The notes under the pieces were generated by a model, which was not told the DNA's origin, ran no database searches, and saw nothing but the letters and a program-made list of their open reading frames with translations. Shown here in pieces: positions 22,890 through 55,705 of a DNA stretch of 64,000 nucleotides (positions are counted from its first letter, which is position 1; every line of letters starts with the position of its first letter). The position numbers and the translations under genes are program-made. This stretch comes from Patescibacteria group bacterium (lineage in GTDB: Bacteria > Patescibacteriota > Patescibacteriia > JACQRZ01): the NCBI GenBank assembly GCA_038065125.1, contig JBBTRP010000006.1:172-64171 (forward strand). Direction: 5' to 3'.

Positions 22890-23873
22890 ATGGTCATTAC
22901 CAGAACACCATTTCGCATCTCATTTTTCGGCGGAGGCAGCGACTATCCGACGTGGTTTAATCAGCACAGTGGAGCCGTGCTGTCCGCAACGATCAATAAG
23001 TACTGCTATATTAGCTGCCGCTATCTGCCGCCATTTTTTGAGCATACAAGCAGGGTCGTGTGGTCAAAAATCGAGTCAGTGAAAGGTGTCGACGAGATTC
23101 AGCACCCAGTTGTGCGTCATGCCCTGCAATGGCTCGGCATTTCCGAAGGTCTGGAGATCCACCACAATGCCGACCTTCCGGCACGTGCGGGCCTGGGATC
23201 AAGTTCGTCGTTTACGGTCGGTTTTCTCAATGCCCTCCAAGCACTGCAAGGCCGACTAAGCACTAAGTATCAGTTGGCACTCGACGCAATTCATGTCGAG
23301 CAGGAGCTCTTGAAAGAGAACGTCGGCTGTCAGGATCAAACGGCAGCAGCGTTCGGGGGGCTCAACAAGATCGAGTTCGGCGGAATGGAACAGGTGAAGG
23401 TCTCGCCCATGGTTTGTTCGCGCGAGCGCTTGAAAGAGCTGGAGAGTCATTTGCTTCTGTACTTTACGGGTATGTCGCGAACGGCATCTGAGATTGCTGC
23501 GGAGCAAATCGCAAATATTCCCGACAAAGAACGCGAGATACGCGAGATGGTCAGGTTCGTCGACGAGGCGGTCACCATTCTTCACTCGCTCCAGTGGGCG
23601 GATCAGTTTGGCAAGCTTTTGCATGAGACCTGGCTTTTAAAAAAAACGCTTTCGAGCAAGATTGCAAACCCTCTTATCAATTCGTTATACGAAGAGGCGA
23701 GAAGTGCAGGCGCTCTTGGCGGCAAGTTGTTGGGCGCGGGTGGCGGAGGTTTTATGCTCTTTTTTGCGAAGCCGGAAAATCATCCAGCTATCAAGCAGCG
23801 CCTCGCAAATTTTTTACATGTACCGTTTGAGTTTGAGACGTCAGGGAGTCAGATCATTTACCATGCAAATTAA
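22890..23873 (+). CDS. GHMP-family sugar kinase, D-glycero-alpha-D-manno-heptose-7-phosphate kinase (HddA)-like
   Basis: TPFRISFFGGGSDYP N-terminus. GHMP motif PARAGLGSSSSF. C-terminal GAGGGGF. Confidence 0.65.
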   Translation: MVITRTPFRISFFGGGSDYPTWFNQHSGAVLSATINKYCYISCRYLPPFFEHTSRVVWSKIESVKGVDEIQHPVVRHALQWLGISEGLEIHHNADLPARAGLGSSSSFTVGFLNALQALQGRLSTKYQLALDAIHVEQELLKENVGCQDQTAAAFGGLNKIEFGGMEQVKVSPMVCSRERLKELESHLLLYFTGMSRTASEIAAEQIANIPDKEREIREMVRFVDEAVTILHSLQWADQFGKLLHETWLLKKTLSSKIANPLINSLYEEARSAGALGGKLLGAGGGGFMLFFAKPENHPAIKQRLANFLHVPFEFETSGSQIIYHAN

Positions 23874-24976: not shown

Positions 24977-24981
24977 CCGAC

Positions 24982-26436: not shown

Positions 26437-26438
26437 AG

Positions 26439-27143
26439 GTGGAGCGGTTTCAGCACTTGTATGCTAGTATGGCAACTATGGTCTGTCAAAAGAGTTCGTC
26501 CCCCGTCATTTTTTTTGACGTAGACGGGACGTTGATTCTCCGTACATCATGCGAATATTTACTACTGCGACACCTATTGATACGCGGAAATTTTCCTCTC
26601 ACCAATCTGGTTCATGCTTTGGTGTGGAATCTTGGGAAAGCAAGGACTTTTTTTTACTCCCTCCATTTCAATAAATTGTGGTATAGGGGATACTCAGTCG
26701 ACGGACTCAACAAGCATATCGATGCAGTATTTCCATCAATTTGCAGACACATATCGCAAGGGGCCATCAATGAAATGCGGCGAGCTCATGACGGCGGATC
26801 TCGCATCGTCCTTCTTTCTGCGGCTCCCGATATTCTCGTGCGCCGGATAGGGGAGTATATTGGCTATCATGAGGTGGTTGCAACATCCTTCGAGATTCAT
26901 AATACTATCTACACAGGCAGAGTAACTGGCATTGTACCTTATGCCGCCGGGAAGATTGCCGCAGCTAGCGCATATGCCGCGTCACTAGGTGTTCGTTTAA
27001 GCGATTGCACCGCATATGCAAATGCAGGCTCAGACATTCCGCTCCTGGAGAGCGTCGGGACGGCGTATGCAGTGAATCCGTCAGTGGGACTGCAAAAACA
27101 CGCAATGAGTAAGGGATGGAGTATTTTAAGATTCAACACATAA
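26439..27143 (+). CDS. HAD-superfamily subfamily IB hydrolase (phosphatase)
   Basis: FFDVDGTLI motif I. Alternative start at 26469. Confidence 0.7.
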   Translation: MERFQHLYASMATMVCQKSSSPVIFFDVDGTLILRTSCEYLLLRHLLIRGNFPLTNLVHALVWNLGKARTFFYSLHFNKLWYRGYSVDGLNKHIDAVFPSICRHISQGAINEMRRAHDGGSRIVLLSAAPDILVRRIGEYIGYHEVVATSFEIHNTIYTGRVTGIVPYAAGKIAAASAYAASLGVRLSDCTAYANAGSDIPLLESVGTAYAVNPSVGLQKHAMSKGWSILRFNT

Positions 27144-27152
27144 CAATTTAAT

Positions 27153-29184: not shown

Positions 29185-30071
29185 AAAAAATACAAGGTTT
29201 ACTACTGCTTGCCCGTCCGTATCAATGGCATAAAAATGTACTCGTCCTAGCCGCGCTTTTATTTTCCGGGCAACTTGAGAGTGTGTCCTCAGTTCAGCTT
29301 TCACTCGTGGCATTCTTTGCTTTTTGCCTCCTTTCTTCAGCGATCTATGTAATAAATGACATTCGCGATTGCGATGACGATCGTCATCACCCAGTAAAAC
29401 AAAAACGCCCGCTTCCGACAGGAGATGTGACATTGATTCACGCATGGGTACTGAGTATAGTTCTTCTCGTTTGCGGAATGTTGGTAAGTTTCTTTCTTGG
29501 AATTTCTTTTTTTGCGGCTGCAGGTGCATATGTCGTTTTGAACGGTTGTTATACATTTGCCCTGAAGAGGATTCCACTTCTGGAGATTTTTTCAGTCGCT
29601 ATGTGTTATGTGCTTCGTGTTGTTGCTGGCGCCTTTGCGATCCATGCTCCCGTAACACCCTATCTACTGATTGCAAGTATGTTGCTATCCATTCTCCTCA
29701 TTCTTGGAAAGCGCAGGCATGAGCGTATGCTCTTTCTTGAAACGGTCCCATTACACCGACCGGTTCTTGCTCAGTATTCCATACAATTTTTGGACCAGCT
29801 TACTACAATATCAGCCGCGGCGACTCTTATTGTGTATATTCTCTATACCCTTGACGAGCACACAAGGACACTTACAGGAAGTTCACTCATGCCCCTCACT
29901 ATACCGTTTGTCATCTATGGTCTCTTCCGCTATCTTTTGATTGTTGGTAATCTTGATCGCGGCGGCGATCCGTCGAGAGATCTTCTTCTCGACAAACCTC
30001 TTCTCGCCACGTCGTTGGTATGGGTAGGAAGCATTATCCTCATTATTTATTCTGCCCGCCACTCCTTATGA
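29172..30071 (+). CDS. UbiA-family prenyltransferase, decaprenyl-phosphate phosphoribosyltransferase (DPPR synthase)-like
   Basis: NDIRDCDDDRHHPVKQKRPLPTG (NDxxDxxxD + basic patch). About 8 TM. Confidence 0.75.
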   Translation: MVLIKKIQGLLLLARPYQWHKNVLVLAALLFSGQLESVSSVQLSLVAFFAFCLLSSAIYVINDIRDCDDDRHHPVKQKRPLPTGDVTLIHAWVLSIVLLVCGMLVSFFLGISFFAAAGAYVVLNGCYTFALKRIPLLEIFSVAMCYVLRVVAGAFAIHAPVTPYLLIASMLLSILLILGKRRHERMLFLETVPLHRPVLAQYSIQFLDQLTTISAAATLIVYILYTLDEHTRTLTGSSLMPLTIPFVIYGLFRYLLIVGNLDRGGDPSRDLLLDKPLLATSLVWVGSIILIIYSARHSL

Positions 30072-31405
30072 AGCATGATCCGCTCCAAATCCAATTGTTT
30101 CGTAGTAAGCGCGTTCTTGTTTTAGGAGACATCATGATTGATCATTACATCTACGGCGATTCAAACAGAATTTCTCCAGAAGCCCCAGTTCCTATAGTAA
30201 ATCGTAAGTCAGAATCCTACCATCTTGGCGGAGCCGCTAATGTGGCGCACGCAATTACGTCTCTTGGTGCAGAGGTTCTCCTGTGTGGAGTGGTTGGTAA
30301 TGATGATGCAAAGTCGATCGTTTTTAACCTCCTCCACAAGGCCGCAATCGCATCGCACGGCATTTTCTTTTCGGACACAAAAAAAACGGTCATCAAACAA
30401 CGCATCGTCGTCAACGGTCATCACATGCTTCGTCTTGACAGCGACGACACCCCGTACTTCTCTGAGGAGGATTGTCGGCGTTTTACGGCCATGGTCGAGC
30501 CGTTGATTGTTTGGGCAGACGTGGTGCTTTTTTCCGACTACGGAAAAGGCGTGTGTTCCCCGTCGCTGGTCAAACGAATCCTTGCACACGCAAAAGCGCA
30601 TGGCAAAGCCGTGATTGCAGATTTTAAACCAGGAAATGACGCACGCTTTTGCGGGGCGAACCTTATTGTTCCGACCGAGCAGGAGACGCGAGAACTTACC
30701 GGATGCAGTACATTTATGGAGGCGGGCCCACGTCTCGTGAGTGAATACCAGTCAGATGTGTTGGTGACACGCGGAAAAGAAGGAATGACGATTTTCTTCA
30801 AAAATGGGGACACCACTTCCATTCCCCCTAATCCCATGAACGAGTTTGACGTTACGGGAGCAGGGGATACGATCCTTGCGATTCTCGGTTTGGCATATGC
30901 GGTCGGAATGCCGCTGCATGAGGCAGCAACACTTGCGAATCGAGGAGAGGGGATTGTGGTGCAAAAGCCCGGAACTGCGACCGTAAGTCTTGAAGAACTA
31001 ATTTCGAGTGTCGAAGACAATCGTCATATCGAAGGCGTTAGTCTTGTGCCCAAGATCTGGGGATATGAGAAATGGTTGGAAAATAGTGATAAGTACTGTT
31101 CAAAAATTCTTTCACTCAATAAAGGGTTCCAGTGCAGCCTTCACTACCACAAAATGAAGGACGAGATGTTTCTTATACTTAAGGGGCATGTACGCATGGA
31201 GGTTGGCGACACCGTTTCACATATGCGCGAAGGTAACTTTGTTCGTATCGCACCCGAGACCCCGCATCGATTTACTGGAATTGACAATTCGATGATTTTG
31301 GAGGTTAGTACCTATCACGACGAGGGTGACTCATATCGAATACAAGAGAGTAGGAAACTAGACGAGTATGAATTCAGCTTCCTCGCTCCCGGTCGCACTA
31401 TATGA
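30068..31405 (+). CDS. HldE domain I-like (pfkB) D-heptose-7-phosphate kinase fused to a C-terminal metal-binding cupin domain
   Basis: RfaE-I motifs (VLVLGDIMIDHYIYGDSNRISPEAPVPIV, GGAANVA, DVTGAGDT). C-terminus contains the cupin motif G(x5)HxH(x4)E(x6)G as GFQCSLHYHKMKDEMFLILKG. ATGA overlap with the upstream gene sets the start at 30068. Confidence 0.75.
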   Translation: MKHDPLQIQLFRSKRVLVLGDIMIDHYIYGDSNRISPEAPVPIVNRKSESYHLGGAANVAHAITSLGAEVLLCGVVGNDDAKSIVFNLLHKAAIASHGIFFSDTKKTVIKQRIVVNGHHMLRLDSDDTPYFSEEDCRRFTAMVEPLIVWADVVLFSDYGKGVCSPSLVKRILAHAKAHGKAVIADFKPGNDARFCGANLIVPTEQETRELTGCSTFMEAGPRLVSEYQSDVLVTRGKEGMTIFFKNGDTTSIPPNPMNEFDVTGAGDTILAILGLAYAVGMPLHEAATLANRGEGIVVQKPGTATVSLEELISSVEDNRHIEGVSLVPKIWGYEKWLENSDKYCSKILSLNKGFQCSLHYHKMKDEMFLILKGHVRMEVGDTVSHMREGNFVRIAPETPHRFTGIDNSMILEVSTYHDEGDSYRIQESRKLDEYEFSFLAPGRTI

Positions 31406-31926
31406 GAAGAGCTGTGTTCTTTGATCGGGATAACACTTTAAATAAAGATGCTGGGTACACACATACAATCGAAGAATACCAACTTCTGCCCAGCGTTCTG
31501 TCCACTCTCAAGAGGTTGGAGAAAACAAATTTTTTGAAAATCATTATCACTAATCAGTCTGGCATTGCGAGAGGATATTATGCGGTAGAGCATTTCGATG
31601 GGTTTATGACTCACATGCTCAATGATTTTAAGGGCAATGGAGTTACAATAGATGGCGTGTATCACTGTGCTCATTTACCTGATGATTCGTGCAACTGCCG
31701 AAAACCGCAGCCCGGCATGTTTTTTCAAGCTGCCACAGATCACGGCGTTGATCTTTCAATCAGTTGGTCCGTTGGTAACTCCCACTCAGATGTCGTCGCC
31801 GGAAAACGTGCGGGAGTCCGAACGATAATGCTCGGCGCAAGTAATACTGTTGACGAGGAGGCGACACCTCACCATAGTGTCGAGACGCTTGATGCTGCGG
31901 TCGATATTATTATGGGCACTCAATGA
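31402..31926 (+). CDS. gmhB: D,D-heptose 1,7-bisphosphate phosphatase (HAD-IIIA)
   Basis: VFFDRDNTLN motif I. CxC zinc-binding loop (DDSCNCRKP). Confidence 0.8.
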   Translation: MRRAVFFDRDNTLNKDAGYTHTIEEYQLLPSVLSTLKRLEKTNFLKIIITNQSGIARGYYAVEHFDGFMTHMLNDFKGNGVTIDGVYHCAHLPDDSCNCRKPQPGMFFQAATDHGVDLSISWSVGNSHSDVVAGKRAGVRTIMLGASNTVDEEATPHHSVETLDAAVDIIMGTQ

Positions 31927-33455
31927 AAGTCAGCCAGCTTGGGAAAAATATTATTACGTCATTCGTCGGCCAGGGCATTCTCCTGGTTTCTTCTTTTATC
32001 TCAACACACGTTATATATCATCACTTAGGACGAGATGTATTGGGACTTCTGAATTTTTCGCTTCTGATCACATCCTTTTTGGTAAGCTTTTTGGATTTTG
32101 GCATCAGTGTGGTTGCGACACGCGAGTTGGCCGCCTATCGATCAACGAGGCCAGAATACACTGAGTCGATTATTCGTTCACTTTCGTTTATCTCACTCCT
32201 TACGTTCTGCCTCTCTTCTCTTGTGATCGCGCTCCTCTCGCCACTTCTATTGAACGGTTGGGTGCGTCTTGAAAATATTTCTGTTGTTAATTCCTGGGTG
32301 CTTGTCTCCTTTGTATGTATCTCTGTTGGGCTTTTGCTGGGAATTCTGAGAACATTTTACAGTATTGTCCTCAACGGCTATGAGCGTGTTGACGCCGTAC
32401 AATGGTCGCAGGTTTCGTTCGTCGCGATCCAGCAGATTGGACTTATTACACTACCGCTTATCAAGAGTAGCTTATTTGTTATTGCTGCGTGGTATTTGGT
32501 ATCGGGCCTGGCGGGAACGGCTCTATTCGGGTGGCGAGCATTTCGTGTTGCGGGGTGGCCGTTGTTTCGGCCGCGCGCATCCTTTTTTTTCCTCCGTAAT
32601 AATGCGAGGTATGCCGTGGAAAATTTTTTTGCAAGTTTTTCAGGAACACTCATTTTCCAGTCGGACAAGTGGCTCATGAGCAGATTTTTCCCGATCGGAA
32701 TGCTGGGGTTTTACACATCCACGCAGGCGCTAGCCGGTAAGGGTACGATCCTTGCAAGCTCGGTGGTTAGCGCAATTTTCCCCTCGATTTCACATGACGT
32801 GGAGAATGTGAGCGTAAATGAGTGGCGGAAACGGTATGCGGTTGCGCAAGATATTTGTTTAGTTACGTCGGGGTGTCTACTTGCTGCCATCTATTTTTTT
32901 GGGACAGATCTTTTGACCGGAATTTTTTCTGCAGAGATTGCCCTACAGATGAAGTATCCGCTGTTCATCTTGTGTGTGGGGGCGTTTTTTCACGCGAGTC
33001 TCTATGTGCCCAGCTGGGTTGCTATTGCGATGAAGAAGACCGATATGCTTGTGAAGGCAAATTGTGTAAGCATGGTAATAGTTTTTCCGTTGTTGTGGTT
33101 CCTTGCCAGTAAATTCGGAATACTCGGCCTCTCGACAATCACGCTTCTGTTCATTTGCGTCCAATATGTTTTTTTTATCCCGCGCTTTGCAGCCGAGTGC
33201 ATCCAATCGTCAGCGTGCCTATGGTATCGTCATGCATTCGCTCTTGCAATGTCTGCGGGCGTGACGTATGGTAGTTTCTATGCTCTCTCGACTTTTTTTC
33301 CTGGGATCGCGATCCGAGTAGCGTTCTATTGCGCTGGCACTGCGGCCTTCCTTGTAATCAGTAGTCAGTTGGTTAGCGTTCGACTTGCTGATGTCCTACG
33401 CGAATTAATTACAAACGCTTTTTCAAAAATACTTCCTTACCGTAACATCGTATGA
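31923..33455 (+). CDS. wzx: O-antigen/polysaccharide flippase (Wzx, MOP superfamily)
   Basis: 510 aa, 12-14 TM. PST-family order. Confidence 0.8.
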   Translation: MKVSQLGKNIITSFVGQGILLVSSFISTHVIYHHLGRDVLGLLNFSLLITSFLVSFLDFGISVVATRELAAYRSTRPEYTESIIRSLSFISLLTFCLSSLVIALLSPLLLNGWVRLENISVVNSWVLVSFVCISVGLLLGILRTFYSIVLNGYERVDAVQWSQVSFVAIQQIGLITLPLIKSSLFVIAAWYLVSGLAGTALFGWRAFRVAGWPLFRPRASFFFLRNNARYAVENFFASFSGTLIFQSDKWLMSRFFPIGMLGFYTSTQALAGKGTILASSVVSAIFPSISHDVENVSVNEWRKRYAVAQDICLVTSGCLLAAIYFFGTDLLTGIFSAEIALQMKYPLFILCVGAFFHASLYVPSWVAIAMKKTDMLVKANCVSMVIVFPLLWFLASKFGILGLSTITLLFICVQYVFFIPRFAAECIQSSACLWYRHAFALAMSAGVTYGSFYALSTFFPGIAIRVAFYCAGTAAFLVISSQLVSVRLADVLRELITNAFSKILPYRNIV

Positions 33456-34669
33456 GTGGCACGATTACCGAGTGTCGGGTCTGCGCCTCGCCCATTCTTG
33501 AACCGGTCATCGATCTTGGATCGCAGCCATGGTGTGGCAATTTTCTGAAAGAAGATGCAGTTGGTACGGAGCCGCTATTTTCTTTGCGGTTAGTATATTG
33601 TGAGCGATGTTGTACACCGCAACTCGACTACACCGTGCCAAAGGAGTATATGTTTTCCGACCATACATATCTCTCGAATATCACATACACGCTGAGTAAT
33701 CACTTTAAGTCAGTTGCGCAGGAGGTGAAGCAGCGATTTTTCAGGGCACAAGACACGCCATCAGTTCTTGACATAGGCTCAAACGACGGTCTCGCACTCA
33801 AACACTACCAAGACCTTGGATTTGATGTATTAGGCGTTGAGTCAGCTAAAACTGCGGCACGTCTTGCGCGGGAAGCGGGGATACCAACAGAGAATGCGTT
33901 CTTCGATCTTGGGTTTGCAGAGCGACTCGGTCGCACGTTCGATGTGGTGAGCGCCTCAGGAGTCTTTTTCCACCTCGAAGATCTCCATTCGGTCGTAGAA
34001 GGGATTAAAAGAGTCCTCGCTCACGACGGAATATTCGTTGTACAGTTTTTGTACATGAAGAGAATTATAGAAAACCGGGCATTTGATCAGATCTACCACG
34101 AACACTTGCTGTACTATACTCTCAAGAATATTGCAACACTTCTCAATAGTCATGGAATGGAGATGTTTGATGCATATCTATCCTCGATTCATGGTGGTTC
34201 GATCATCGGATTCATCACGCATAAGGGGAGACAGCCCCAGTCACAGCGCCTCGGCGACCTTCGATCCATCGAGGATCGAGATGAGACAAACATGAAAAAA
34301 ACATACCTTTCTTTCGCAAAATCGATTGAGGTGATGAAGGTAGAAAATCTTGAGTACCTTGAGAGAAAAAAATCTCAAGGTAAAACCATCTTCGGCTTTG
34401 GCGCACCTGCAAAAGGAAATACACTTCTGAACTATTTTAATATCGGCGGGCAGTACCTTGATCTTTTGGTCGAGAAAAATCGTCTTCGTAAAAATTTATA
34501 CTCGCCAGGACAGCACCTTAAAATCGTGATGGAAGACGAGCTCGCCGCCCCTCCGGATGTGTACTATGTGTTGGCATGGAACTTTAAGGACGAGATCCTC
34601 GCTAAGAATGCGCACCTTATCGAAAAAGGAGTTGAGTTTTATTTTCCGGTCGACCCTCTCGCCGTATGA
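33452..34669 (+). CDS. NDP-hexose C-methyltransferase (TylCIII/NovU/EvaC family) #1
   Basis: N-terminal Zn ribbon (CRVCASP..CERCCTPQL). SAM motif (VLDIGSNDG). C-methyltransferase C-terminal domain. Confidence 0.85.
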   Translation: MSGTITECRVCASPILEPVIDLGSQPWCGNFLKEDAVGTEPLFSLRLVYCERCCTPQLDYTVPKEYMFSDHTYLSNITYTLSNHFKSVAQEVKQRFFRAQDTPSVLDIGSNDGLALKHYQDLGFDVLGVESAKTAARLAREAGIPTENAFFDLGFAERLGRTFDVVSASGVFFHLEDLHSVVEGIKRVLAHDGIFVVQFLYMKRIIENRAFDQIYHEHLLYYTLKNIATLLNSHGMEMFDAYLSSIHGGSIIGFITHKGRQPQSQRLGDLRSIEDRDETNMKKTYLSFAKSIEVMKVENLEYLERKKSQGKTIFGFGAPAKGNTLLNYFNIGGQYLDLLVEKNRLRKNLYSPGQHLKIVMEDELAAPPDVYYVLAWNFKDEILAKNAHLIEKGVEFYFPVDPLAV

Positions 34670-35580
34670 GGGTGTGTGTTACAGGAGCGAGCGGGTTTGT
34701 CGGGAGTGCCCTTTGCCCATTTTTAGAGGGTCAAGGGCATGAAGTTGTGCGTCTCACCTCACGAAGCGCAGATCTCACTAAGCAAGGAAGTCTCGAGCCG
34801 TATGCCTCGATGAAGTTCGACGTGATCTACCACCTTGCGGCATGGACACAAGCAGGTGACTTCTCGCTTCATCATTGCGGTGAGGAGTGGATGATCAATC
34901 AGGCAATGAATACCAACCTGCTCACTTGGTGGGCGACTGTCCAGCCTCAAGCAAAACTGATTGCAATTGGAACAAGCTGCTCCTACGACCCGTCACTTCC
35001 TCATGTTGAGGAGAATTACACGCTCGGCATGCCAACCGAGAGCCTTGTGACGTACGCGATGACAAAGCGGATGATCTATTACGGCCTTAGTGCGCTTAAC
35101 CGTCAGTTTGGTTTACGCTATCTTACGGTCGCACCATCTACTATCTATGGTCCGGGCTATCAGTTAAGAGACGGTAAGCAATTACATTTTATTTTTGATC
35201 TGATCAGAAAGATTGTACAAGGAAAGCTCACTGGCGAGGAGGTCGTACTGTGGGGCGACGGATACCAGAAACGCGAGCTTATTTACATCGACGACTTTAT
35301 TGCTGTCTTAGTTGGGCTTGCTGGCATATGCGAGAATATGTTGGTCAACATCGGAGGGGGCGAGGAGCACACCATCCGGGAGTTTGCGGGGATGATATGC
35401 GATGACGTTGGATATGATCCTGCACTTATCCAGTATGACACGAGCAAGTTTGTTGGTGCGCGAGCAAAATTTTTGATTATTGACAAGCTCAAGGGCCTTC
35501 TTCCCGACATCTCATTTACACCGCTTCGCCAGGGGCTGACACAGACGATTGCGTGGTATTGGAATCAGTTGAATGCATGA
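34666..35580 (+). CDS. GDP-L-fucose synthase-like NAD(P)-dependent epimerase/reductase (extended SDR)
   Basis: MRVCVTGASGFVGSAL. YAMTKRM (YxxxK). Confidence 0.75.
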   Translation: MRVCVTGASGFVGSALCPFLEGQGHEVVRLTSRSADLTKQGSLEPYASMKFDVIYHLAAWTQAGDFSLHHCGEEWMINQAMNTNLLTWWATVQPQAKLIAIGTSCSYDPSLPHVEENYTLGMPTESLVTYAMTKRMIYYGLSALNRQFGLRYLTVAPSTIYGPGYQLRDGKQLHFIFDLIRKIVQGKLTGEEVVLWGDGYQKRELIYIDDFIAVLVGLAGICENMLVNIGGGEEHTIREFAGMICDDVGYDPALIQYDTSKFVGARAKFLIIDKLKGLLPDISFTPLRQGLTQTIAWYWNQLNA

Positions 35581-36625
35581 GTATGTCTTCGTGGAGCACA
35601 AAATCAGCAAGCCCCCACTGCTCAGTATTGGGTAGTACCACCTGCGAGGTCTGAATCATTTTCTTAAAAGCAGGCACCTCCTGCAAGTGAGCAGTCGGTC
35701 GATATTTTTGCGCTTCCCTGCTGTGCTCCTGGTGGTAGATCGGGTGGGGAATTAGTACTTGTAGAAGGCGTGCATAATCGGCAAGAATAACCATGTAACA
35801 GTCGACGCTTCTATCAGCTCCGATTTCCGGATATCCACGCAACCGAGTCCATTGCGTGGAGGGCATAAGAAAGAAGTCGCCACAATTGATAAACAGTCCG
35901 TCAAACGAGCGTCCGTGTTCATCCTCTACTGTCATCTCTTTTCCGACCCCGATCCGATGAAGTTCGCGCATGATTTTTTCTTGTATCATGGCAAGAGAGA
36001 AGAACTCTCTACGATGGCGCAGCTGTGCTTTTTTCCACTCCTTATTATCCAAAATGACTTGGCCGCGAAGGCTTTGAACTCGAAATGAGTGATCTTTGCA
36101 AAAAAACTCCCTCTCGATGGGAGTGAGCTCATCTGGTACGAGATCGTAGAAGTCATATCGCTCAATGCGAAAAAAAGCATTATCAGGTATCTCAATATTT
36201 TTAAGGTATGAGATTAGTCCATCGGATACAATGATGTCTGAGTTCATTGCCGCTATATATGCGCCTCGCGCTCGGCGGATTCCGACATTCTTTGCTAAGA
36301 ATTCGCAGTAGGGGATGTCGTTGGAGTGGGAAGTCTTTTCATGTACATCGGATGGGACAGTGATTATCCGTATGGGTTTCTTTTTGAGTTCATCTGGTAG
36401 ACTTAGTACATCTATGAGTCGGGGCGCATTATCGGGCGGGTTCCACTCGACGATGATCAGCTCCATACTAAGGTCGTGCTTGATGGAGAGTTCCAAAAGC
36501 GTTCGAATACACATGGAAAATCGATGGAGGAAATTACCACCGAAATTGTCGTTCCGAGCGGGAATTACAAAACTATAGCGAGGAGAACCATTCATATACA
36601 CGTTACTATACGAACTGAAAAGCAT
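35516..36625 (-). CDS. hypothetical protein with GT-A-like N-terminus
   Basis: SFVIPARND and AAMNSDII (DxD-like) hint at a GT-A fold. Otherwise unassignable. 65-nt convergent overlap with the upstream gene end. Confidence 0.45.
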   Translation of the reverse strand: MLFSSYSNVYMNGSPRYSFVIPARNDNFGGNFLHRFSMCIRTLLELSIKHDLSMELIIVEWNPPDNAPRLIDVLSLPDELKKKPIRIITVPSDVHEKTSHSNDIPYCEFLAKNVGIRRARGAYIAAMNSDIIVSDGLISYLKNIEIPDNAFFRIERYDFYDLVPDELTPIEREFFCKDHSFRVQSLRGQVILDNKEWKKAQLRHRREFFSLAMIQEKIMRELHRIGVGKEMTVEDEHGRSFDGLFINCGDFFLMPSTQWTRLRGYPEIGADRSVDCYMVILADYARLLQVLIPHPIYHQEHSREAQKYRPTAHLQEVPAFKKMIQTSQVVLPNTEQWGLADFVLHEDILMHSTDSNTTQSSVSAPGEAV

Positions 36626-36681
36626 TGGGTCAACCCATTGACGAGAAAGGTCTTGCCTGGAATACTATCTTCACTGTACGA

Positions 36682-37914
36682 ATGACTATGGACACTATTA
36701 GTTGCTGTAGAGTCTGTCAAAACCCGCGCCTACATAATTTTTTTCATTTGGGCGATCATCCGCTTGCCAACTCGCTTCTCTCAAATCCAAATGATCCGGA
36801 GCAGAAATACCCGTTATCTTTAAGCTGGTGCCAAGATTGTTCGCTCGTACAACTAAATGAGACCGTAGACCCTAAGGTGCTCTTTTCACAGTACGTCTGG
36901 GTAACGGGGACATCGCAGGGCGCACGAGAGTATGCCGAAGTGTTCTGCAAAGAGCTCTTAGAACGGATTGAGCTTTCTGCCGGAGACTTTGTTCTTGAAA
37001 TTGCAAGCAATGATGGGACATTTTTAAAACCTTTTCGCGCACGAGGAATCACTGTCGTAGGCATCGATCCAGCTGAAAATATTATCAAAACAGCTAACGA
37101 GGATGGTATCCCAACTGAGCCAGTGTTCTGGGGGGTCGAATCTGCTCATGTATTGCGAAAAAAATATGGGAGGCCGCGTGTTATTTTTGCGCGCAACGTA
37201 CTGCCTCATGTCGCCAATACGCAAGACTTTGTTCGCGCGATTGCTGACACGGTCGTTGAGGATGGGCTTGTTGCCATCGAGGTTCATTATGCCCGGACCA
37301 TCCAGAAAGAGTTACATTACGACTCCATTTATCATGAGCATCTTTGCTACTTTACCGTTGAGAGTCTCGAGCGACTGTTGCGCGAGGCAGGATTGTACGT
37401 ATTCGATGTGAATGAGAGTCCTTTGAATGGTGGGTCAATAGTTGTCTATGCTTCTCGCACTCCGAAGCAGACGTCACCGCGACTTGATGGGAGTCGAGCG
37501 AATGAGCGAGAGAGTAAAATAAATTCCCTCGAGAAGTGGCAAGAGTTTTCTCGCGCTGCCACGCGCCACGCCTCAGAGTTTCGAGCCCTTCTTTCGAGAG
37601 TCGGTGGAAATCACGTCGTTGGATGGGGGGCCTCTGCAAGGAGCTCAACGCTTTTAAATTATTGTGGTATTACGCGAGAGACAATAGCGGAAGTTGCAGA
37701 CATGAACCCACTCAAGCAGGGATTATTCACGGCAGGAACCGGAATTCCAATTCGAGCACCGGGTGTCGTTTTTCAGACAAAGCCTGACCTTGTCGTTCTC
37801 CTTGCATGGAACTTTACTGACGAGATTCGTGAAAGTCTCCGGACCGACTTTTCTTATTCCGGAGCAGTCATTACCCCTCTACCAGGAGCTCCGACACTCC
37901 ACCCTTCATCGTAA
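36682..37914 (+). CDS. NDP-hexose C-methyltransferase (TylCIII/NovU/EvaC family) #2
   Basis: CRVCQNP..CQDCSLVQL Zn ribbon. VLEIASNDG. Paralog of 33452-34669. Start taken at the MTMDT Met, since the longer ORF abuts a divergent gene. Confidence 0.8.
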   Translation: MTMDTISCCRVCQNPRLHNFFHLGDHPLANSLLSNPNDPEQKYPLSLSWCQDCSLVQLNETVDPKVLFSQYVWVTGTSQGAREYAEVFCKELLERIELSAGDFVLEIASNDGTFLKPFRARGITVVGIDPAENIIKTANEDGIPTEPVFWGVESAHVLRKKYGRPRVIFARNVLPHVANTQDFVRAIADTVVEDGLVAIEVHYARTIQKELHYDSIYHEHLCYFTVESLERLLREAGLYVFDVNESPLNGGSIVVYASRTPKQTSPRLDGSRANERESKINSLEKWQEFSRAATRHASEFRALLSRVGGNHVVGWGASARSSTLLNYCGITRETIAEVADMNPLKQGLFTAGTGIPIRAPGVVFQTKPDLVVLLAWNFTDEIRESLRTDFSYSGAVITPLPGAPTLHPSS

Positions 37915-37942
37915 CTTCTCCCATATTTTTAATCAGGAATAT

Positions 37943-38392
37943 ATGCTTGACGGAGTTCAAGTCACGCCACTAAAAAAAATTCCAGATGTGCGCGGCACCA
38001 TTATGCCTGGTGTCCGTTGTGACACGTTGATGAATCCTTTCGGCGAGGTCTATTTCAAGAAGCTGTATGCAGGTATTATCAATGGGTGGCATGTACATGA
38101 GACGCTGACGCTGAATTACATCTGTATTGCGGGAATGATCAAGATCGTTCTTTACGACATGCGGGAGAGCTCTCTGACATTCAAGCAGTTGCAGGAAGTG
38201 TATCTTGGTGATGACAACTATGCGCTCCTCCACATTCCTCCTGGGATTGCGAATGCCGTAAAAAGTATCGCCTTACCTCACGCACTTTTTTGCAACATCG
38301 CATCTGAGCCGCATAATCCGAATATAAAGTACAGAAGAATCGATCCGCACTCGAGCGAGATACCATACGATTGGAGCAAAAAAGATTTTTAA
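37943..38392 (+). CDS. RmlC/FdtA-like cupin sugar-nucleotide 3,5-epimerase or 3,4-ketoisomerase
   Basis: 149 aa from the internal ATG. RmlC-like segments (HVHETL, LLHIPPGIANAVKSI). Confidence 0.7.
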   Translation: MLDGVQVTPLKKIPDVRGTIMPGVRCDTLMNPFGEVYFKKLYAGIINGWHVHETLTLNYICIAGMIKIVLYDMRESSLTFKQLQEVYLGDDNYALLHIPPGIANAVKSIALPHALFCNIASEPHNPNIKYRRIDPHSSEIPYDWSKKDF

Positions 38393-38404
38393 GAAGTCCA
38401 CCCG

Positions 38405-39007
38405 ATGACGGACGTTAATGTATTTATCGAGACCTTTACGCATAAAGTCACTACTGCGCTTTGCTCTGTTTCAGTCGAGCAGATAAAATCGGCAATTGCA
38501 GCCCTTCGAGCGTGTTGCACTCGTTCGGGTCGCGTGTATGTTTTCGGAAACGGTGGTTCCTATGCAATGGCAGGGCATTGGTCAAGCGACTTGAATAAAG
38601 CAATTCTGTATAGGAGGGGCCGCAAGCGAACACAGAGTGATTTCTGTGTCGTTCGCTTGCCGATGAGTGACGCCGAATTAACCGCATGGGCAAACGACAG
38701 TGGCTATGATAGTGTATTTGCGGGTCCCCTGATGCATCTTGTCCGACCCGCCGATCTTGTAATTGCTCTTTCATGTTCCGGAAACTCTCTCAATGTTCTC
38801 AATGCTGTCAATGTCGCGAAACAGCTGGCCGTTCCCGTCATCGGATTCACTGGCTTTGATGGCGGAGAGCTTAAAAAAATTTCTGATATTTCAATTCATG
38901 TGCAGACAGAAAAGTCGGAGTATGCTGCGGTTGAAAGCGTTCACGCGACAGTCCTGAATCTCTTAACTGACTTCTTCAACACGAACGACAGTACGCTTGC
39001 GATATGA
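38405..39007 (+). CDS. gmhA: phosphoheptose (sedoheptulose-7-phosphate) isomerase, SIS domain
   Basis: GNGGS, ANDSGYDSVF, SCSGNSLNV, GFTGFDGG match GmhA signatures. Confidence 0.85.
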   Translation: MTDVNVFIETFTHKVTTALCSVSVEQIKSAIAALRACCTRSGRVYVFGNGGSYAMAGHWSSDLNKAILYRRGRKRTQSDFCVVRLPMSDAELTAWANDSGYDSVFAGPLMHLVRPADLVIALSCSGNSLNVLNAVNVAKQLAVPVIGFTGFDGGELKKISDISIHVQTEKSEYAAVESVHATVLNLLTDFFNTNDSTLAI

Positions 39008-39819
39008 CCATGAATAAGAACATCCCGATTGTGATTTTGTGCGGTGGAAAAGGAACTCGTCTCAAAGAGGAGACGGAGTATAAACCAAAACCTCTCGTTC
39101 GAATCGGTGAAAAGCCGATCCTTTGGCACATTATTAAACTTTACGCGCACTTTGGCTTCTCGCGTTTTATCCTCACACTTGGATATAAAGGAGATATGAT
39201 TAAGGATTATTTTCTGAATCATCGCTTTCTCGGCAACGACTTTACGCTTCACTGTTCCACTAATCAAATTGACTTTCATAGCGACGACACACTTGACGTT
39301 TCAATTACCTTTGTAAATACCGGCAGCGAAGCACTGACCGGCGAGCGTCTTCAAAAGATTAAGAAGTATATTGACACAGATTATTTTATGGTAACCTATG
39401 GGGATGGAGTTGCTGACATCAACATTGAACGACTGCTGCGCTTTGCTCTGGAACAAAAAACACTTGGAACGATTACCGGTGCTCACCCCCATTCTAAATA
39501 CGGAATGCTGAAGGTACACAAAGATCTAAAGGTTGCTGAGCATTTTGTGCAAAAACCGTTGATGCACGACCTTATCAACGGTGGATTTATGGTTTTTCAA
39601 AAAAGTTTTTTTGAATATCTCGACAACACTATCATGGAAAATGCATTTGAAAAATTAATTCAGGAAAAGCATCTTTCTGTCTACGAGCACGATGGTTTTT
39701 GGATGGGAATGGATACTTATTCCGATGTCGAGGCACTCAATGAACTATGGAGGACTGAGAGGCCTTGGGCTCTGTGGGAGGAAAACCCCGAGTATGTTAC
39801 AGGTTCACGCCTTGCATGA
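39004..39819 (+). CDS. rfbF: glucose-1-phosphate cytidylyltransferase-like sugar-1-phosphate nucleotidyltransferase
   Basis: VILCGGKGTRLKEETEYKPKPLVRIGEKPILWHII is a near-canonical RfbF N-terminus. ATGA-type overlap with gmhA. Confidence 0.85.
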   Translation: MTMNKNIPIVILCGGKGTRLKEETEYKPKPLVRIGEKPILWHIIKLYAHFGFSRFILTLGYKGDMIKDYFLNHRFLGNDFTLHCSTNQIDFHSDDTLDVSITFVNTGSEALTGERLQKIKKYIDTDYFMVTYGDGVADINIERLLRFALEQKTLGTITGAHPHSKYGMLKVHKDLKVAEHFVQKPLMHDLINGGFMVFQKSFFEYLDNTIMENAFEKLIQEKHLSVYEHDGFWMGMDTYSDVEALNELWRTERPWALWEENPEYVTGSRLA

Positions 39820-40870
39820 TTTTTACAAAGGAAAGAAGGTTCTCATTACCGGACATACTGGTTTTAAGGGGGGCTGGCTTTCGCTAGCGCTTATTCGTCT
39901 TGGCGCACGCGTCTCCGGGATCTCCCTAGACCCGCCCGAGAAGAGTTTTTTTAATTGCGTGGGTATAGGTACTCTTCTTATTGACCACCGTCTCGACATT
40001 CGTAATGCCGATGCCATTGCTGGAGTAATTGCAGCAGAGCAACCTGATGTCATTTTTCATTTAGCGGCTCAACCTCTAGTGCGCGAGAGCTATAATGAAC
40101 CACTTGCTACATTTGCAACGAATGCGCTTGGCACTGCGCATGTCCTCGAGGTGATCCATTCTATCGAATCAATCCGCTCAGTCGTTTGTATCACCACAGA
40201 CAAGGTATATGAAAATGTCGGAGACGGTAGAGCGTACGCAGAAACTGACCGGCTTTCCGGCCATGATCCGTACAGTGCGAGTAAAGTGTGCGCTGAAATG
40301 GTTGCGCGCGCATACCACGCATCCTATGAGACTCTCGAACGAGAGGTTGGCATTGCAACAGCTCGCGCGGGAAATGTCATCGGGGGAGGGGATTGGGCAT
40401 GCGATCGTCTCGTTCCGGATATTATACGTTCTCATTTTGAGGGGACTCCGCTCGTTATTAGAAATCCTCAGGCATCCCGTCCGTGGCAGCATGTGCTTGA
40501 ACCTCTTTATGGATATATGCTTCTCGGTCGTGAGTTATACATGAGACCGAAAGAATTCTGCGGGGCATGGAACTTCGGACCGCGAGATGAAGACCAGTGT
40601 TCGGTTCAGGAGATACTCACAAAGATCGAGTATGTTCTCGACGTCAAGATGCGATACAATGTCTCGAGCGATTTATTGAGGCCAGAGGCACATCTACTTC
40701 GATTGAGCAGCGAAAAAGCAAGGATGCGGCTTGGATGGTGTCCGCTTCTTAATCTTGATCAAACCATATACATGACGAGTGATTGGTATCGACTCCAGAA
40801 TACGGGGCAAGACATGCGGAAAGTGAGTGAGTCCCAAATAGAAACTTTTTTCTCTGCAGTTACACCATGA
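39794..40870 (+). CDS. rfbG: CDP-glucose 4,6-dehydratase-like (extended SDR)
   Basis: FYKGKKVLITGHTGFKGGWL. YSASKVCAE. Start ATG 39794 overlaps the rfbF end by 26 nt; TTG 39812 is an alternative. Confidence 0.85.
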   Translation: MLQVHALHDFYKGKKVLITGHTGFKGGWLSLALIRLGARVSGISLDPPEKSFFNCVGIGTLLIDHRLDIRNADAIAGVIAAEQPDVIFHLAAQPLVRESYNEPLATFATNALGTAHVLEVIHSIESIRSVVCITTDKVYENVGDGRAYAETDRLSGHDPYSASKVCAEMVARAYHASYETLEREVGIATARAGNVIGGGDWACDRLVPDIIRSHFEGTPLVIRNPQASRPWQHVLEPLYGYMLLGRELYMRPKEFCGAWNFGPRDEDQCSVQEILTKIEYVLDVKMRYNVSSDLLRPEAHLLRLSSEKARMRLGWCPLLNLDQTIYMTSDWYRLQNTGQDMRKVSESQIETFFSAVTP

Positions 40871-41751
40871 CCATGAAACGATTACTCATTATTGGTGGAT
40901 CGGGTCAGCTTGGAGCGGCGCTTCGTAAAGACGCATCTTTTTTCGGCTATGAAGTATTCTCGCCGTCGAAGAAAGATCTTGATATTACCTGCGAGAGTTC
41001 AATCCTAGAAGAGTACGTACAAGACTGCGCACCGAATCTCGTTATTAATGCGGCGGCATATAATCTCGTTGCGTCGTCCGAAAATTTTCCGCTTGAAGCT
41101 ATGAACCTCAACTGTTTTTTTGTGGCAAATCTTGCTGCAGCGTGTTCAAAGATCTCTGCTCCTCTCGTGACTTATAGCACGGATTACGTCTTTGATGGAA
41201 AGAAAGGATCGCCGTATATTGAGCATGAACAGCCAAATCCCCTCCAGATGTATGGTATTTCAAAGTGTGCCGGCGAGTATGCAGCCCGAGCGTACTATGA
41301 AATGGGGTCGATTGTTATTCGCACCTGCGGCATCTATGGAGGCATTTCGGGAAGTAGACAAAAAGGGGGAAATTGCGTACTCAACTTCATTCGCCAATTG
41401 CGATTGGGCCTCAGCTTTTCCGTCAGCGCAGACCAGTGGGCAACCCCGACCTACGCCCAGTCAGTCAGTTGTGCGACCCTTGCTCTTCTTGAAACAGAAC
41501 CAGCGGCTGGCATCTATCATCTTGTCAACGAAGGGCATTGCTCATGGTATGACTTCGCACGAGAGATCAAACTCTTGATCGGCAGTTCAACACATATCGA
41601 GCCGATAGAGACTGATAAAAGTACTGTACCTGCCAGACCCCTTTTTTCAGTTCTTAGCAATGCGAAAGCGAAACGTCTAGGCATCCAACTGCCTTTTTGG
41701 AAAGATGCATTGGCCCAGTATATTGAGAGTGAACTCCTCCTAAATCGCTAA
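40867..41751 (+). CDS. RmlD-like NDP-4-keto-6-deoxyhexose reductase
   Basis: RLLIIGGSGQLG. YGISKCAGE. RmlD substrate-binding domain order. Confidence 0.8.
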   Translation: MTMKRLLIIGGSGQLGAALRKDASFFGYEVFSPSKKDLDITCESSILEEYVQDCAPNLVINAAAYNLVASSENFPLEAMNLNCFFVANLAAACSKISAPLVTYSTDYVFDGKKGSPYIEHEQPNPLQMYGISKCAGEYAARAYYEMGSIVIRTCGIYGGISGSRQKGGNCVLNFIRQLRLGLSFSVSADQWATPTYAQSVSCATLALLETEPAAGIYHLVNEGHCSWYDFAREIKLLIGSSTHIEPIETDKSTVPARPLFSVLSNAKAKRLGIQLPFWKDALAQYIESELLLNR

Positions 41752-41764
41752 CCGACCTGTAGGC

Positions 41765-42853
41765 ATGAAGCAAAAAGTAAGTATTTGCATCCCGGTATAT
41801 AATGGAGGTCAGTTACTGCGAAGGGCCATCGAGTCCGCGCTTACTCAAACGCACCCCACTGTTGAGGTTGTCATTGTGGATAACGCGAGTACAGATGAAA
41901 CGCCTACGCTTGTGGCAGAGTACGAGGCAAAGGACTCACGCGTAAAAAGCTTTCGGAACGAAAAAAATATCGGTAACAACCCGAATATTTTAAGGTCTTT
42001 TCAGCTTGCCACTGGCGACTTCGTCCAGCTACTGTGCCACGATGACTGGCTCTCACCCACGTATATTGCTGATGTTTATAGATTATTTGAACTTCATCCC
42101 GAGAGCTTATTTTGTACAGGAAAGGTTGTCGGATTTTTGTCAGATGAAGGCTTTTCGATCACAGAGTGCAATTATCAGAACTATTTTACCCGTGAAAAGT
42201 ACTCGATCTCGGATATACTAGGAAAGCTCTATTCATCAATCTGGTTGCACTATACTATTCTTGGAATGATGAGAAAAGATGATGTTGATAAGGCGATAGC
42301 GAACATGCCCGATGCCGTCTATCAGCAAAACTTCAGTTCTACTGATACGAATGGCTATTTACGGCAGATTTTTTCTGATGCATTTTTGATTCTTGTCATC
42401 CAGTCTCTTTTCTCATATCGATGGATCGGGGCGACTAATTCATGTTTTTATGCAAAAGTAGGCACAACGGTGACCAAAGAGCGCGTGGAGCGTATCTACC
42501 CGCGTAACACAATTCAGCAAGTCGTTGAATACCAAACAATGATTGCGGAGCACTATAGTAAGCTTTATTCGACGCTTGGTTTTTTAAAGTACCTTCCAGC
42601 GATGAAATACTATTTTTCACGCACGCTACTCAATGAACTTGTGATCCACTGCCTGAAGACTAAAACCTCATTACGGGCACTCTTACAGCATAAAAATGTA
42701 AGAGATTATCTAGCCTCCATCCCAAGAGTGCGACTCTTGGCTGAAATTATTCGCTGTTTGCCGTGGCTTGTCTTGAGAGGATTAGCGTATAATGCCCGCG
42801 GGCAAAGAAAAAAAAGGTTTACCAGCTTCTGCGTGCCGCCTACGCCCCTGTAG
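41765..42853 (+). CDS. glycosyltransferase family 2
   Basis: VSICIPVYNGG..VVIVDNASTDET..HDD. Confidence 0.8.
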   Translation: MKQKVSICIPVYNGGQLLRRAIESALTQTHPTVEVVIVDNASTDETPTLVAEYEAKDSRVKSFRNEKNIGNNPNILRSFQLATGDFVQLLCHDDWLSPTYIADVYRLFELHPESLFCTGKVVGFLSDEGFSITECNYQNYFTREKYSISDILGKLYSSIWLHYTILGMMRKDDVDKAIANMPDAVYQQNFSSTDTNGYLRQIFSDAFLILVIQSLFSYRWIGATNSCFYAKVGTTVTKERVERIYPRNTIQQVVEYQTMIAEHYSKLYSTLGFLKYLPAMKYYFSRTLLNELVIHCLKTKTSLRALLQHKNVRDYLASIPRVRLLAEIIRCLPWLVLRGLAYNARGQRKKRFTSFCVPPTPL

Positions 42854-55704: not shown

Positions 55705-55705
55705 T

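Follow-up and report, generated by a model that had tools for sequence, protein, structure and literature searches.

The 64,000-nucleotide stretch of DNA analyzed here (the window; Patescibacteria group bacterium, contig JBBTRP010000006.1) contains two genes for putative sugar C-methyltransferases, herein referred to as MT1 and MT2, together with genes of the type that forms 6-deoxy sugars activated by cytidine diphosphate (CDP). Do both enzymes belong to one pathway, and which sugars do they methylate? An earlier note, made from the letters alone, had placed both in one CDP-type operon and offered two outcomes, a doubly C-methylated sugar or two differently C-methylated sugars. The second is the better of these options. 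Based on the domain composition and catalytic motifs of the proteins, the order and coupling of the genes, and the conserved partner sets observed here, two branches are proposed that would lead to two different C-methyl-branched nucleotide sugars, with MT1 acting on a 4-keto-heptose and MT2, an RmlC-like cupin, and an RmlD-like reductase acting on the product of an RfbG-like dehydratase. Our confidence in this proposal is evenly balanced. The coordinates of the features are collected in Table 1.

Both proteins have the full TylCIII/NovU/EvaC architecture that had been ascribed to them. The zinc domain Methyltransf_13 (PF08421) was found with 65.5 bits in MT1 and 73.0 bits in MT2, and the class I S-adenosylmethionine (SAM) domain Methyltransf_23 with 54.6 and 73.1 bits, respectively. 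The C-terminal C-methyltransferase domain, Methyltransf_14 (PF08484), is also present on profile search, with the whole profile covered (145.3 bits in MT1 and 133.8 bits in MT2; cutoff 23.5). The zinc cysteines are located in CRVC at position 8 and CERC at position 50 of MT1, and in CRVC at position 9 and CQDC at position 50 of MT2. The SAM motif reads LDIGSNDG in MT1 and LEIASNDG in MT2, aligned to LEIGSNTG of MtmC. The YHEH motif, found at residues 215–218 of MT1 and 217–220 of MT2 and aligned to YHEH of MtmC, is the active-site Tyr-x-Glu-His, which corresponds to Tyr222, Glu224, and His225 of TcaB9. Both proteins align end to end with MtmC (PDB: 4rv9), TcaB9 (3ndi), and KijD1 (5t64), with E-values from 1e-50 to 1e-72, and all these solved relatives are C3 enzymes. 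By sequence, MT1 and MT2 are full-length nucleoside diphosphate (NDP)-4-ketosugar C-methyltransferases of the TylC3/TcaB9 type; SAM-dependent methylation would occur at C3, as for TylC3 and EvaC, or at C5, as for NovU. The start of MT2 was taken as the ATG at 36682, while the gene callers chose a TTG at 36625.

MT1 and MT2 share 28.6–30% identity and are no closer to each other than either is to MtmC (31–35%). In a neighbor-joining tree they belong to separate, well-populated clades; a third clade contains the methyltransferases that usually accompany the RfbF-like genes of Patescibacteria. Because of the low identity and the separate clades, a duplicated pair can be rejected, and a recent duplication is ruled out (29% identity). 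Additionally, the genes belong to two different tight operons with 4-bp overlaps, 26439–35580 for MT1 and 36682–42853 for MT2. The Fcl-like short-chain dehydrogenase/reductase (SDR) and the unassigned protein described as flanked by the methyltransferases were both found, the latter in the opposite orientation (minus strand), converging on the Fcl-like gene and lying between the operons. Orthologs of MT1 with about 65% identity were found in cyanobacteria, Planctomycetes, Ratteibacteria, Longimicrobium, and others, and the MT1-type clade is abundant in the search results (cyanobacteria, Planctomycetes, Patescibacteria, and others). The orthologs of MT2 (50–56% identity) belong mostly to Patescibacteria and include MT2-cupin fusions of 555–556 amino acids (aa; proteins P0174 and P0192), which speak for methylation and epimerization being directly coupled in function. 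In two loci (L008 15817–17681 and L009 17485–19397), MT2 orthologs are adjoined by a methyltransferase of 379–384 aa, followed by a CmcI-like methyltransferase. The former has the C-methyltransferase C-terminal domain without the zinc ribbon and thus represents a truncated family architecture.

The partners of MT1 were analyzed in 80 metagenome loci fetched with MT1 as the query and in loci from an exact-protein look-up. Neighbors were scored by tblastn, and loci with a methyltransferase at least 50% identical to MT1 were considered as the MT1 clade (36 loci). Many of these contigs are only a few kb long, so all the counts are lower bounds. The Fcl-like SDR (45–61% identity) was found in 30 of the 36 loci, almost always immediately downstream of the methyltransferase; in the window, it is translationally coupled to MT1. 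This SDR has a GDPFucSynFcl score of 128 bits, under the cutoff of 500, and its best PDB matches are guanosine diphosphate (GDP)-L-fucose synthases. A Cj1427-like SDR (48–65% identical to that of the window) and an HddA-like kinase (33–56% identity) were found in 22 loci each, and an SIS/GmhA-like protein in nine. No RfbF, RfbG, RmlD, or Gmd was found by tblastn in any of the 36 loci. Two loci with longer context (L011 and L013) also have a small HddC/ManC-like nucleotidyltransferase or a nucleotidyltransferase-SIS fusion. Judging from the counts and these longer loci, the recurrent unit is a predicted isomerase, kinase, nucleotidyltransferase, 4-oxidase, MT1, and reductase. This unit would follow the logic of Campylobacter heptose synthesis, with a C-methyltransferase inserted between oxidation and reduction. 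The cassette is spread over many phyla, and orthologs of its Cj1427-like SDR, HddA-like kinase, and Fcl-like reductase are all present in the window, where the Cj1427-like SDR is 55–61% identical to the SDR adjoining the MT1 orthologs in L010, L011, and L013. Since the MT1 clade occurs without RfbF and RfbG, comparative evidence places MT1 outside the CDP module to which it had been assigned. The Gmd-like protein of the window (TIGR01472, 398.7 bits, just under the cutoff of 415) was dropped as the leading idea for the source of the MT1 substrate because of the absence of Gmd from the same loci.

With two putative heptose kinases, a GmhB-like phosphatase, a GmhA-like protein, and the Cj1427-like SDR, the window encodes a full putative route to heptose-1-phosphate plus a putative heptose 4-oxidase. 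The best NCBIfam match of the HddA-like kinase is HddA (142.9 bits, far under the cutoff of 600), and its best PDB matches are the heptose kinases 3k85, 4n3o, and 4usk (E-values from 5e-40 to 5e-34). The open reading frame (ORF) of the pfkB-family kinase opens at 30020; this protein has 298 bits for TIGR02198 (rfaE_dom_I), under the cutoff of 345, and its gene has 4-bp overlaps with the UbiA-family gene upstream and the GmhB-like gene downstream. The GmhA-like protein has 86–95 bits for the GmhA models, under the cutoffs of 209–276. It shares about 30% identity with phosphoheptose isomerases of solved structure and retains the motifs GNGGS, NDxGYDxVF, and SxSGNS, and its gene overlaps the start of the RfbF-like gene by 4 bp. 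Of these heptose genes, only gmhA had been noted before; the kinases and GmhB upstream as well as the Cj1427-like SDR downstream had been missed, and the likely sugar backbone therefore changes.

The C-terminal cupin of the pfkB-family kinase resembles mannose-6-phosphate isomerase. The same kinase-cupin fusion (47% identity) was found in a Doudnabacteria locus (L017 3229–4548), with genes for a PF01467 nucleotidyltransferase-GmhB fusion, an SDR, and a GT9 heptosyltransferase after it. Because no SIS isomerase was detected near this fusion in the Doudnabacteria locus, the fused cupin might replace GmhA there.

MT2 has a different set of partners. In Parcubacteria, Liptonbacteria, and other loci, MT2 orthologs have a cupin directly downstream, and the RmlC-like cupin of the window is 64–69% identical to such cupins in L007 and L147. 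This cupin matches PDB 3ejk, named "dTDP sugar isomerase" (dTDP, deoxythymidine diphosphate), with an E-value of 9e-18 and has weak matches to GDP-4-keto-heptose epimerases. A GHMP kinase, an SIS protein, an NTP-transferase-GmhB fusion, and two SDRs, one of them a distant member of the Cj1427 family, were found near MT2 orthologs; RfbF and RfbG are absent from all 10 loci of the MT2 clade. The MT2-cupin pair of the window, however, shares one operon with gmhA and the RfbF-like, RfbG-like, and RmlD-like genes. The RfbG-like protein is 45% identical to PDB 1wvg over 349 residues (326 bits). The RmlD-like protein, which would act on a dTDP- or CDP-linked substrate, is 49–50% identical to the reductases closing RfbF-methyltransferase-cupin operons in L175 and L176. 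These operon neighbors of MT2 in the window, as well as the Fcl-like SDR, had been correctly typed in the earlier note according to Pfam and NCBIfam, and the dehydratase is indeed of the RfbG type, with TIGR02622 above the cutoff.

The nucleotidyltransferase is of the RfbF type and not of the dTDP-forming RmlA type, as had been stated: it has 255.8 bits for TIGR02623 vs. 39 bits for rmlA_long and 72.5 bits for HddC (cutoff 300). Its alignment with Salmonella RfbF (PDB: 1tzf) covers residues 9–259, including the C-terminal extension (195.6 bits, 40.6% identity). No other sugar-1-phosphate nucleotidyltransferase (NTP_transferase) was found in the window or in the 8 kb downstream. RfbF enzymes use cytidine triphosphate and α-D-glucose-1-phosphate, and this RfbF-like enzyme may do the same. 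The window protein was aligned with its 120 best database homologs (P0241–P0360), with 1TZF, and with the RfbF-like genes of the loci that had been fetched, which are for the most part the set of 80 genome loci. Glu178 of the EKP motif, which we take, by homology with RmlA-type enzymes, to be a sugar-contacting residue, is replaced with Gln (QKP) in the window protein and in 118 of the 120 homologs. In contrast, Glu178 is retained in all 75 sequences of the canonical group, 1TZF included. Other changes specific for this large Gln clade, found mostly in Patescibacteria, are R162K, F163Y, W95F, and K150T, and because of the substitutions some members bear only the NCBI name "sugar phosphate nucleotidyltransferase." RfbG is present in 38 of the 69 canonical RfbF loci. 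In L015, L175, L176, and L177, each Gln-clade gene precedes genes for a 4-keto-forming SDR, a C-methyltransferase of the third clade, and a cupin, often also with an RmlD-like reductase (49–50% identical to that of the window) and a CmcI-like O-methyltransferase; operons of RfbF-like, dehydratase, C-methyltransferase, cupin, and RmlD-like genes thus recur in Patescibacteria. Strict heptose markers (SIS, GmhB, or heptose kinase) were found near four of seven Gln-clade genes vs. two of 69 canonical genes (Fisher's exact test, p = 4e-4, a post hoc comparison on a small sample).

In two Saccharibacteria-type loci (L015 291–4065 and L177 1530–8821), the Gln-clade operon is preceded by genes for TagF-like glycerophosphotransferases, an SIS protein, and an ABC exporter, which suggests that the C-methyl sugar there decorates a teichoic-acid-like polymer. 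In seven loci of cultured Geodermatophilaceae (L030, L053, L055, L063, L067, L073, and L076, from Modestobacter, Blastococcus, and Geodermatophilus), the RfbF-like gene, whose motif reads EKQ, has downstream of it a Cj1427-family SDR and in most cases a cupin instead of RfbG. These operons may represent a CDP-sugar 4-oxidase route without 6-deoxygenation.

Each of the two proposed branches would have its own TylC3/TcaB9-type methyltransferase acting on the enolate of an NDP-4-ketosugar. In the first branch, sedoheptulose-7-phosphate would be converted to heptose-1-phosphate by GmhA, a heptose kinase, and GmhB and activated with a nucleotide. The Cj1427-like SDR would oxidize C4 without deoxygenation, MT1 would move the methyl group of SAM to the enolate carbon beside the keto group (C3 or C5), and the coupled Fcl-like SDR would reduce C4, with or without epimerization, to give a C-methyl-heptose. 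In the second branch, a sugar-1-phosphate would be activated by the RfbF-like enzyme and 4,6-dehydrated by RfbG to a 4-keto-6-deoxy sugar. C-methylation by MT2, epimerization by the cupin, and C4 reduction by RmlD would then yield a C-methylated 6-deoxy sugar similar to cereose, cillose, or vinelose.

For the backbone of this second sugar, glucose, the default of the enzyme families, and heptose are about equally probable. For glucose speak the RfbG score above the equivalog cutoff and the 41–45% identity of both enzymes to the Salmonella pair. Heptose is indicated by the translational coupling of gmhA to the nucleotidyltransferase gene, the loss of the canonical Glu178 in its clade, the presence of MT2 relatives in clear heptose loci, and the fact that this nucleotidyltransferase is the sole one in the region. 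One nucleotide-heptose pool, possibly CDP-heptose, might also be split between the RfbG-like dehydratase, leading to MT2, the cupin, and RmlD, and the Cj1427-like 4-oxidase, leading to MT1 and the Fcl-like reductase. The products would then be a 6-deoxy and a D-glycero heptose, both with a C-methyl branch, an outcome that we consider rather doubtful. We know of no description of eight-carbon C-methyl-branched heptoses of these kinds.

Three other explanations were considered. Participation of both methyltransferases in one CDP-6-deoxyhexose pathway, in which CDP-4-keto-6-deoxyglucose made from CDP-glucose by RfbF and RfbG would be methylated at both C3 and C5 to a doubly branched sugar, is improbable. 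Both genes do lie less than 8 kb from rfbF-rfbG on the same strand, the RfbF-like enzyme has no second nucleotidyltransferase beside it, and RfbG passes the CDP-glucose dehydratase cutoff. However, the two genes are separated by operon structure and by the convergent gene, RfbF and RfbG accompany neither the MT1 nor the MT2 clade (0 of 36 and 0 of 10 loci), and the two clades stand side by side in no related locus examined. A conserved reductase or epimerase partner accompanies each methyltransferase separately, so the doubly C-methylated sugar becomes the less likely of the two outcomes offered before. In a stronger alternative, although still unlikely in our view, both C-methyl sugars would be 6-deoxyhexoses and no heptose would be modified. 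CDP-4-keto-6-deoxyglucose would be the substrate for MT2, the cupin, and RmlD, whereas MT1 and the Fcl-like SDR would act on GDP-4-keto-6-deoxymannose formed by Gmd, with a sugar similar to evalose or virenose as the product; an ordinary heptose for another part of the glycan would come from the heptose genes. The near-threshold Gmd encoded 8 kb downstream, the membership of the Fcl-like SDR in the GDP-fucose synthase family, the resemblance of the RfbF-like (41%) and RfbG (45%) proteins to the Salmonella CDP-glucose enzymes, and the fact that the known C-methyl sugars of surface glycans are 3-C-methyl-6-deoxyhexoses all agree with it. The genomic context of the MT1 clade does not, with the Cj1427-like SDR and the HddA-like kinase recurring where Gmd is never found; nor do the coupling of gmhA to the RfbF-like gene and the Gln at the presumed sugar-binding position.

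It is very improbable that one or both proteins do not C-methylate a sugar, acting instead in O- or N-methylation or in 4-ketoreduction, as in bifunctional MtmC, or that one is a remnant without activity. The sequence does not reveal the regiochemistry, and the best structural relative is MtmC, annotated as D-mycarose 3-C-methyltransferase, which also has ketoreductase activity. Against this, the zinc site, SAM motif, and YHEH are intact in both proteins, and both have large, well-conserved ortholog sets (50–68% identity), which argues for purifying selection on a specific function. Returning to the proposal of two branches with a 4-keto-heptose as the MT1 substrate, several points weigh against it. 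The NCBIfam equivalog cutoffs are not reached by GmhA, GmhB, either kinase, or the RfbF-like enzyme. No heptose nucleotidyltransferase of the HddC type (GDP) or the HldC type (PF01467, adenosine diphosphate) was found in the 64-kb window plus 8 kb downstream (about 72 kb), and the relatives of the Cj1427-like and Fcl-like SDRs are GDP enzymes, yet the sole nucleotidyltransferase present is RfbF-like. PDB 6VO6 is taken here to be C. jejuni Cj1427, judging from the name of its depositor. The MT1 cassette is dispersed in the window (at 22.9, 33.5, and 48.8 kb) rather than contiguous, and some cyanobacterial MT1 orthologs are solitary. In Actinobacteria (Geodermatophilaceae), Cj1427-family SDRs (about 40% identity) are also found after canonical-type RfbF genes, so the family as a whole is no heptose marker, and its distant members were dropped as such. 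Finally, the substrates, nucleotide, regiochemistry, and products of both branches are all predicted from sequence and gene context.

The closest known heptose system is that of Campylobacter jejuni, where the capsular heptose route includes GmhA, HddA, GmhB, HddC, and Cj1427 or a 4,6-dehydratase, followed by cupin C3/C5 epimerases and then C4-reductases (PMC10680097; PMC7949155). Cj1427 is an α-ketoglutarate-dependent C4-dehydrogenase that forms GDP-D-glycero-4-keto-D-lyxo-heptose (PMC10680097; PMC9978623), a hub compound further used by the cupin epimerases and C4-reductases (PMC10680097; PMC9978623; PMC7949155). The window resembles this system in having GmhA-like, HddA-like, and GmhB-like proteins, the SDR 54% identical to 6VO6, a cupin, and Fcl-like reductases, and a 4-keto-heptose hub would likewise be tailored and then reduced. 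Unlike the C. jejuni pathways as described, the window has a TylC3-type methyltransferase between oxidase and reductase, as do 22 related loci, and lacks an HddC-type guanylyltransferase. The word "methyltransferase" does not occur in the Campylobacter heptose review (PMC10680097). No link between a C-methyltransferase and a heptose pathway was found in the literature searched, nor any branched heptose in the literature searched on 3-C-methyl sugars.

For CDP-linked C-methyl sugars, in contrast, precedents exist. According to papers citing the original work, BC3358–BC3361 of Bacillus cereus form CDP-cereose and CDP-cillose, 3-C-methyl-6-deoxyhexoses found on spores (Li et al., 2017, JBC, as cited in PMC7725333, PMC6976573, and PMC9095892). 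In Sinorhizobium meliloti, ddhA and ddhB adjoin a gene for an NDP-hexose 3-C-methyltransferase (SMb21416–SMb21418; PMC4053727). Because of these precedents, the novelty that the earlier note had seen in a non-dTDP scaffold in a surface glycan is already covered, and the recurring Patescibacteria operons weaken it as well. As far as the B. cereus enzymes are known to us, a CDP-type nucleotidyltransferase, a CDP-sugar 4,6-dehydratase, a TylC3-family methyltransferase, and a 4-reductase serve a surface glycan there, and this operon logic matches that proposed for MT2, RfbF, RfbG, and RmlD. Compared with this B. cereus operon, the window adds an RmlC-like cupin, gmhA within the operon, a nucleotidyltransferase with Gln in place of Glu178, and a second, unrelated methyltransferase branch. 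The S. meliloti locus, by its annotation, shares adjacent rfbF, rfbG, and C-methyltransferase genes in a polysaccharide context; unlike the window, it has a single methyltransferase and no reported heptose genes.

Other C-methyl sugars of surface glycans are virenose (Coxiella), 3-C-methylrhamnose (Burkholderia andropogonis and Azorhizobium), and 3-C-methylmannose (Helicobacter pylori). TylC3, TcaB9, MtmC, and KijD1 share the three-domain fold, the four-cysteine zinc site, and YHEH with MT1 and MT2, to which the solved members of this set (3ndi, 4rv9, and 5t64) are 31–35% identical. These actinomycete enzymes act on dTDP-4-keto-2,6- or 2,3,6-deoxyhexoses in antibiotic pathways, whereas MT1 and MT2 are encoded in surface-glycan loci with CDP- or heptose-type partners. 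CDP-vinelose (6-deoxy-3-C-methyl-2-O-methyl-L-talose) was described in Azotobacter vinelandii in the 1960s, and we know of no assignment of its biosynthesis genes. Being a CDP-linked, C-methylated L-6-deoxyhexose, vinelose would need RfbF, RfbG, a C-methyltransferase, an RmlC-like epimerase, and an RmlD-like reductase; the CmcI-like O-methyltransferase of L015, L175, and L177, absent from the window operon, would fit its 2-O-methyl group.

Examples of C-methyl-branched sugars, which are rare on bacterial surfaces and strongly antigenic there, are the virenose of Coxiella and the cereose of Bacillus spores. If the MT1 cassette does methylate a 4-keto-heptose, its product would represent a new class of monosaccharides, a function would be assigned to the MT1-type clade, and a tailoring step would be added to the heptose pathways of the Campylobacter type. 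The enzymes are small and soluble, so direct testing in vitro is feasible.

Table 1. Genes of the window discussed in the text, with strand and supporting matches
Coordinates	Strand	Predicted product	Evidence
22890..23873	+	HddA-like GHMP sugar kinase (putative D-glycero-D-manno-heptose-7-phosphate 1-kinase, alpha anomer)	Pfam GHMP_kinases_N, GHMP_kinases_C
30068..31405	+	pfkB-family heptose kinase (HldE domain I-like) with C-terminal cupin fusion	PfkB 111 bits, Cupin_2
31402..31926	+	GmhB-like heptose 1,7-bisphosphate 7-phosphatase	NF006506 154.3 bits (cutoff 178); TIGR00213 135.3 bits (cutoff 149.6)
31923..33455	+	Wzx-type polysaccharide flippase	Pfam Polysacc_synt 65 bits; 4-bp overlaps with GmhB and MT1
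33452..34669	+	MT1, putative TylC3/TcaB9-family NDP-4-ketosugar C-methyltransferase, clade 1	405 aa; Pfam, PDB, motifs
34666..35580	+	Fcl-like SDR (GDP-fucose-synthase-like 4-reductase, possibly also epimerase)	Epimerase 152 bits
35516..36625	-	359–369 aa protein, function unassigned, possibly divergent GT-A glycosyltransferase	Sub-threshold Glycos_transf_2, 17.4 bits
36682..37914	+	MT2, putative TylC3/TcaB9-family C-methyltransferase, clade 2	410 aa; Pfam, PDB, motifs
37943..38392	+	RmlC-like cupin (putative 4-ketosugar epimerase or isomerase), MT2 partner	dTDP_sugar_isom 37 bits
38405..39007	+	GmhA-like SIS protein (putative sedoheptulose-7-phosphate isomerase)	SIS_2 and SIS domains
39004..39819	+	RfbF-like sugar-1-phosphate nucleotidylyltransferase, QKP clade	TIGR02623 255.8 bits, under cutoff of 300.25
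39794..40870	+	RfbG-like NDP-sugar 4,6-dehydratase (CDP-glucose 4,6-dehydratase family)	TIGR02622 426.4 bits (cutoff 278.45)
40867..41751	+	RmlD-like 4-ketoreductase	RmlD_sub_bind 231 bits; TIGR01214 238.1 bits, above cutoff of 224.05
41765..42853	+	GT2 glycosyltransferase, end of MT2 operon	Glycos_transf_2 91 bits
42840..43823	-	GDP-mannose 4,6-dehydratase-like protein (Gmd), candidate 4-keto donor for MT1	GDP_Man_Dehyd 384.7 bits
48824..49750	+	Cj1427-like SDR (putative NDP-heptose C4-dehydrogenase)	PDB 6vo6 387 bits, 54% identity over 306 residues

This region forms the core of a large island (more than 50 kb) for a cell-surface glycan in the genome of a groundwater member of Patescibacteria. 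Genes for glycan biosynthesis fill nearly all of the window, from about 9 kb through its end. They encode an LCP-family ligase, a polyprenyl-phosphate sugar transferase, many GT2 and GT4 glycosyltransferases, a Wzx flippase, about 12 sugar SDRs, and an aminotransferase; proteins with Wzy_C domains are encoded just beyond the 3' end. Ultra-small Patescibacteria thus put more than 50 kb into an elaborate wall-linked glycan. Several independently assembled contigs from Hainich groundwater samples match the window, and because the gene order repeats across these assemblies, an assembly artifact is excluded. The NCBI label of the MT1 protein is that of a "Patescibacteria group bacterium" metagenome-assembled genome.

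The region 23873–30071 resembles the mycobacterial decaprenyl-phospho-arabinose pathway. It contains a UbiA-family gene similar to those for decaprenyl-phosphate phosphoribosyltransferases (29172–30071; NF008977, 226 bits vs. a cutoff of 234), two SDRs, an HAD-IB phosphatase, a DAO-type FAD oxidoreductase, and a 484-aa minus-strand protein with no family match. The UbiA-family gene overlaps the start of the heptose kinase gene by 4 bp and therefore belongs to the same operon as MT1.

The protein encoded on the minus strand between MT1 and MT2 has no match among the NCBIfam profiles. Its gene is intact (359 aa) in most assemblies, and in one sample (L002 12065–13144) it is split into ORFs of 92 and 253 aa, which suggests strain-level inactivation or phase variation.

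A further set of genes was found at 53116–58349: an alpha/beta pair similar to pyruvate dehydrogenase E1 (E1_dh and transketolase domains), an HAD hydrolase, and two more Fcl-like SDRs. Such a set is typical of the formation of two-carbon branched-chain sugars. The same E1 pair adjoins the MT1 cassette in a Ratteibacteria locus (L010 362–2379), together with a B12-radical-SAM enzyme. The MT1 ortholog of Rippkaea orientalis PCC 8801 (L005 10001–11203, 65% identity) has no cassette partners within 10 kb; this solitary gene, uninformative as a guide to the chemistry of MT1, is located between a lipase-like gene and a TIR-WD40 gene.

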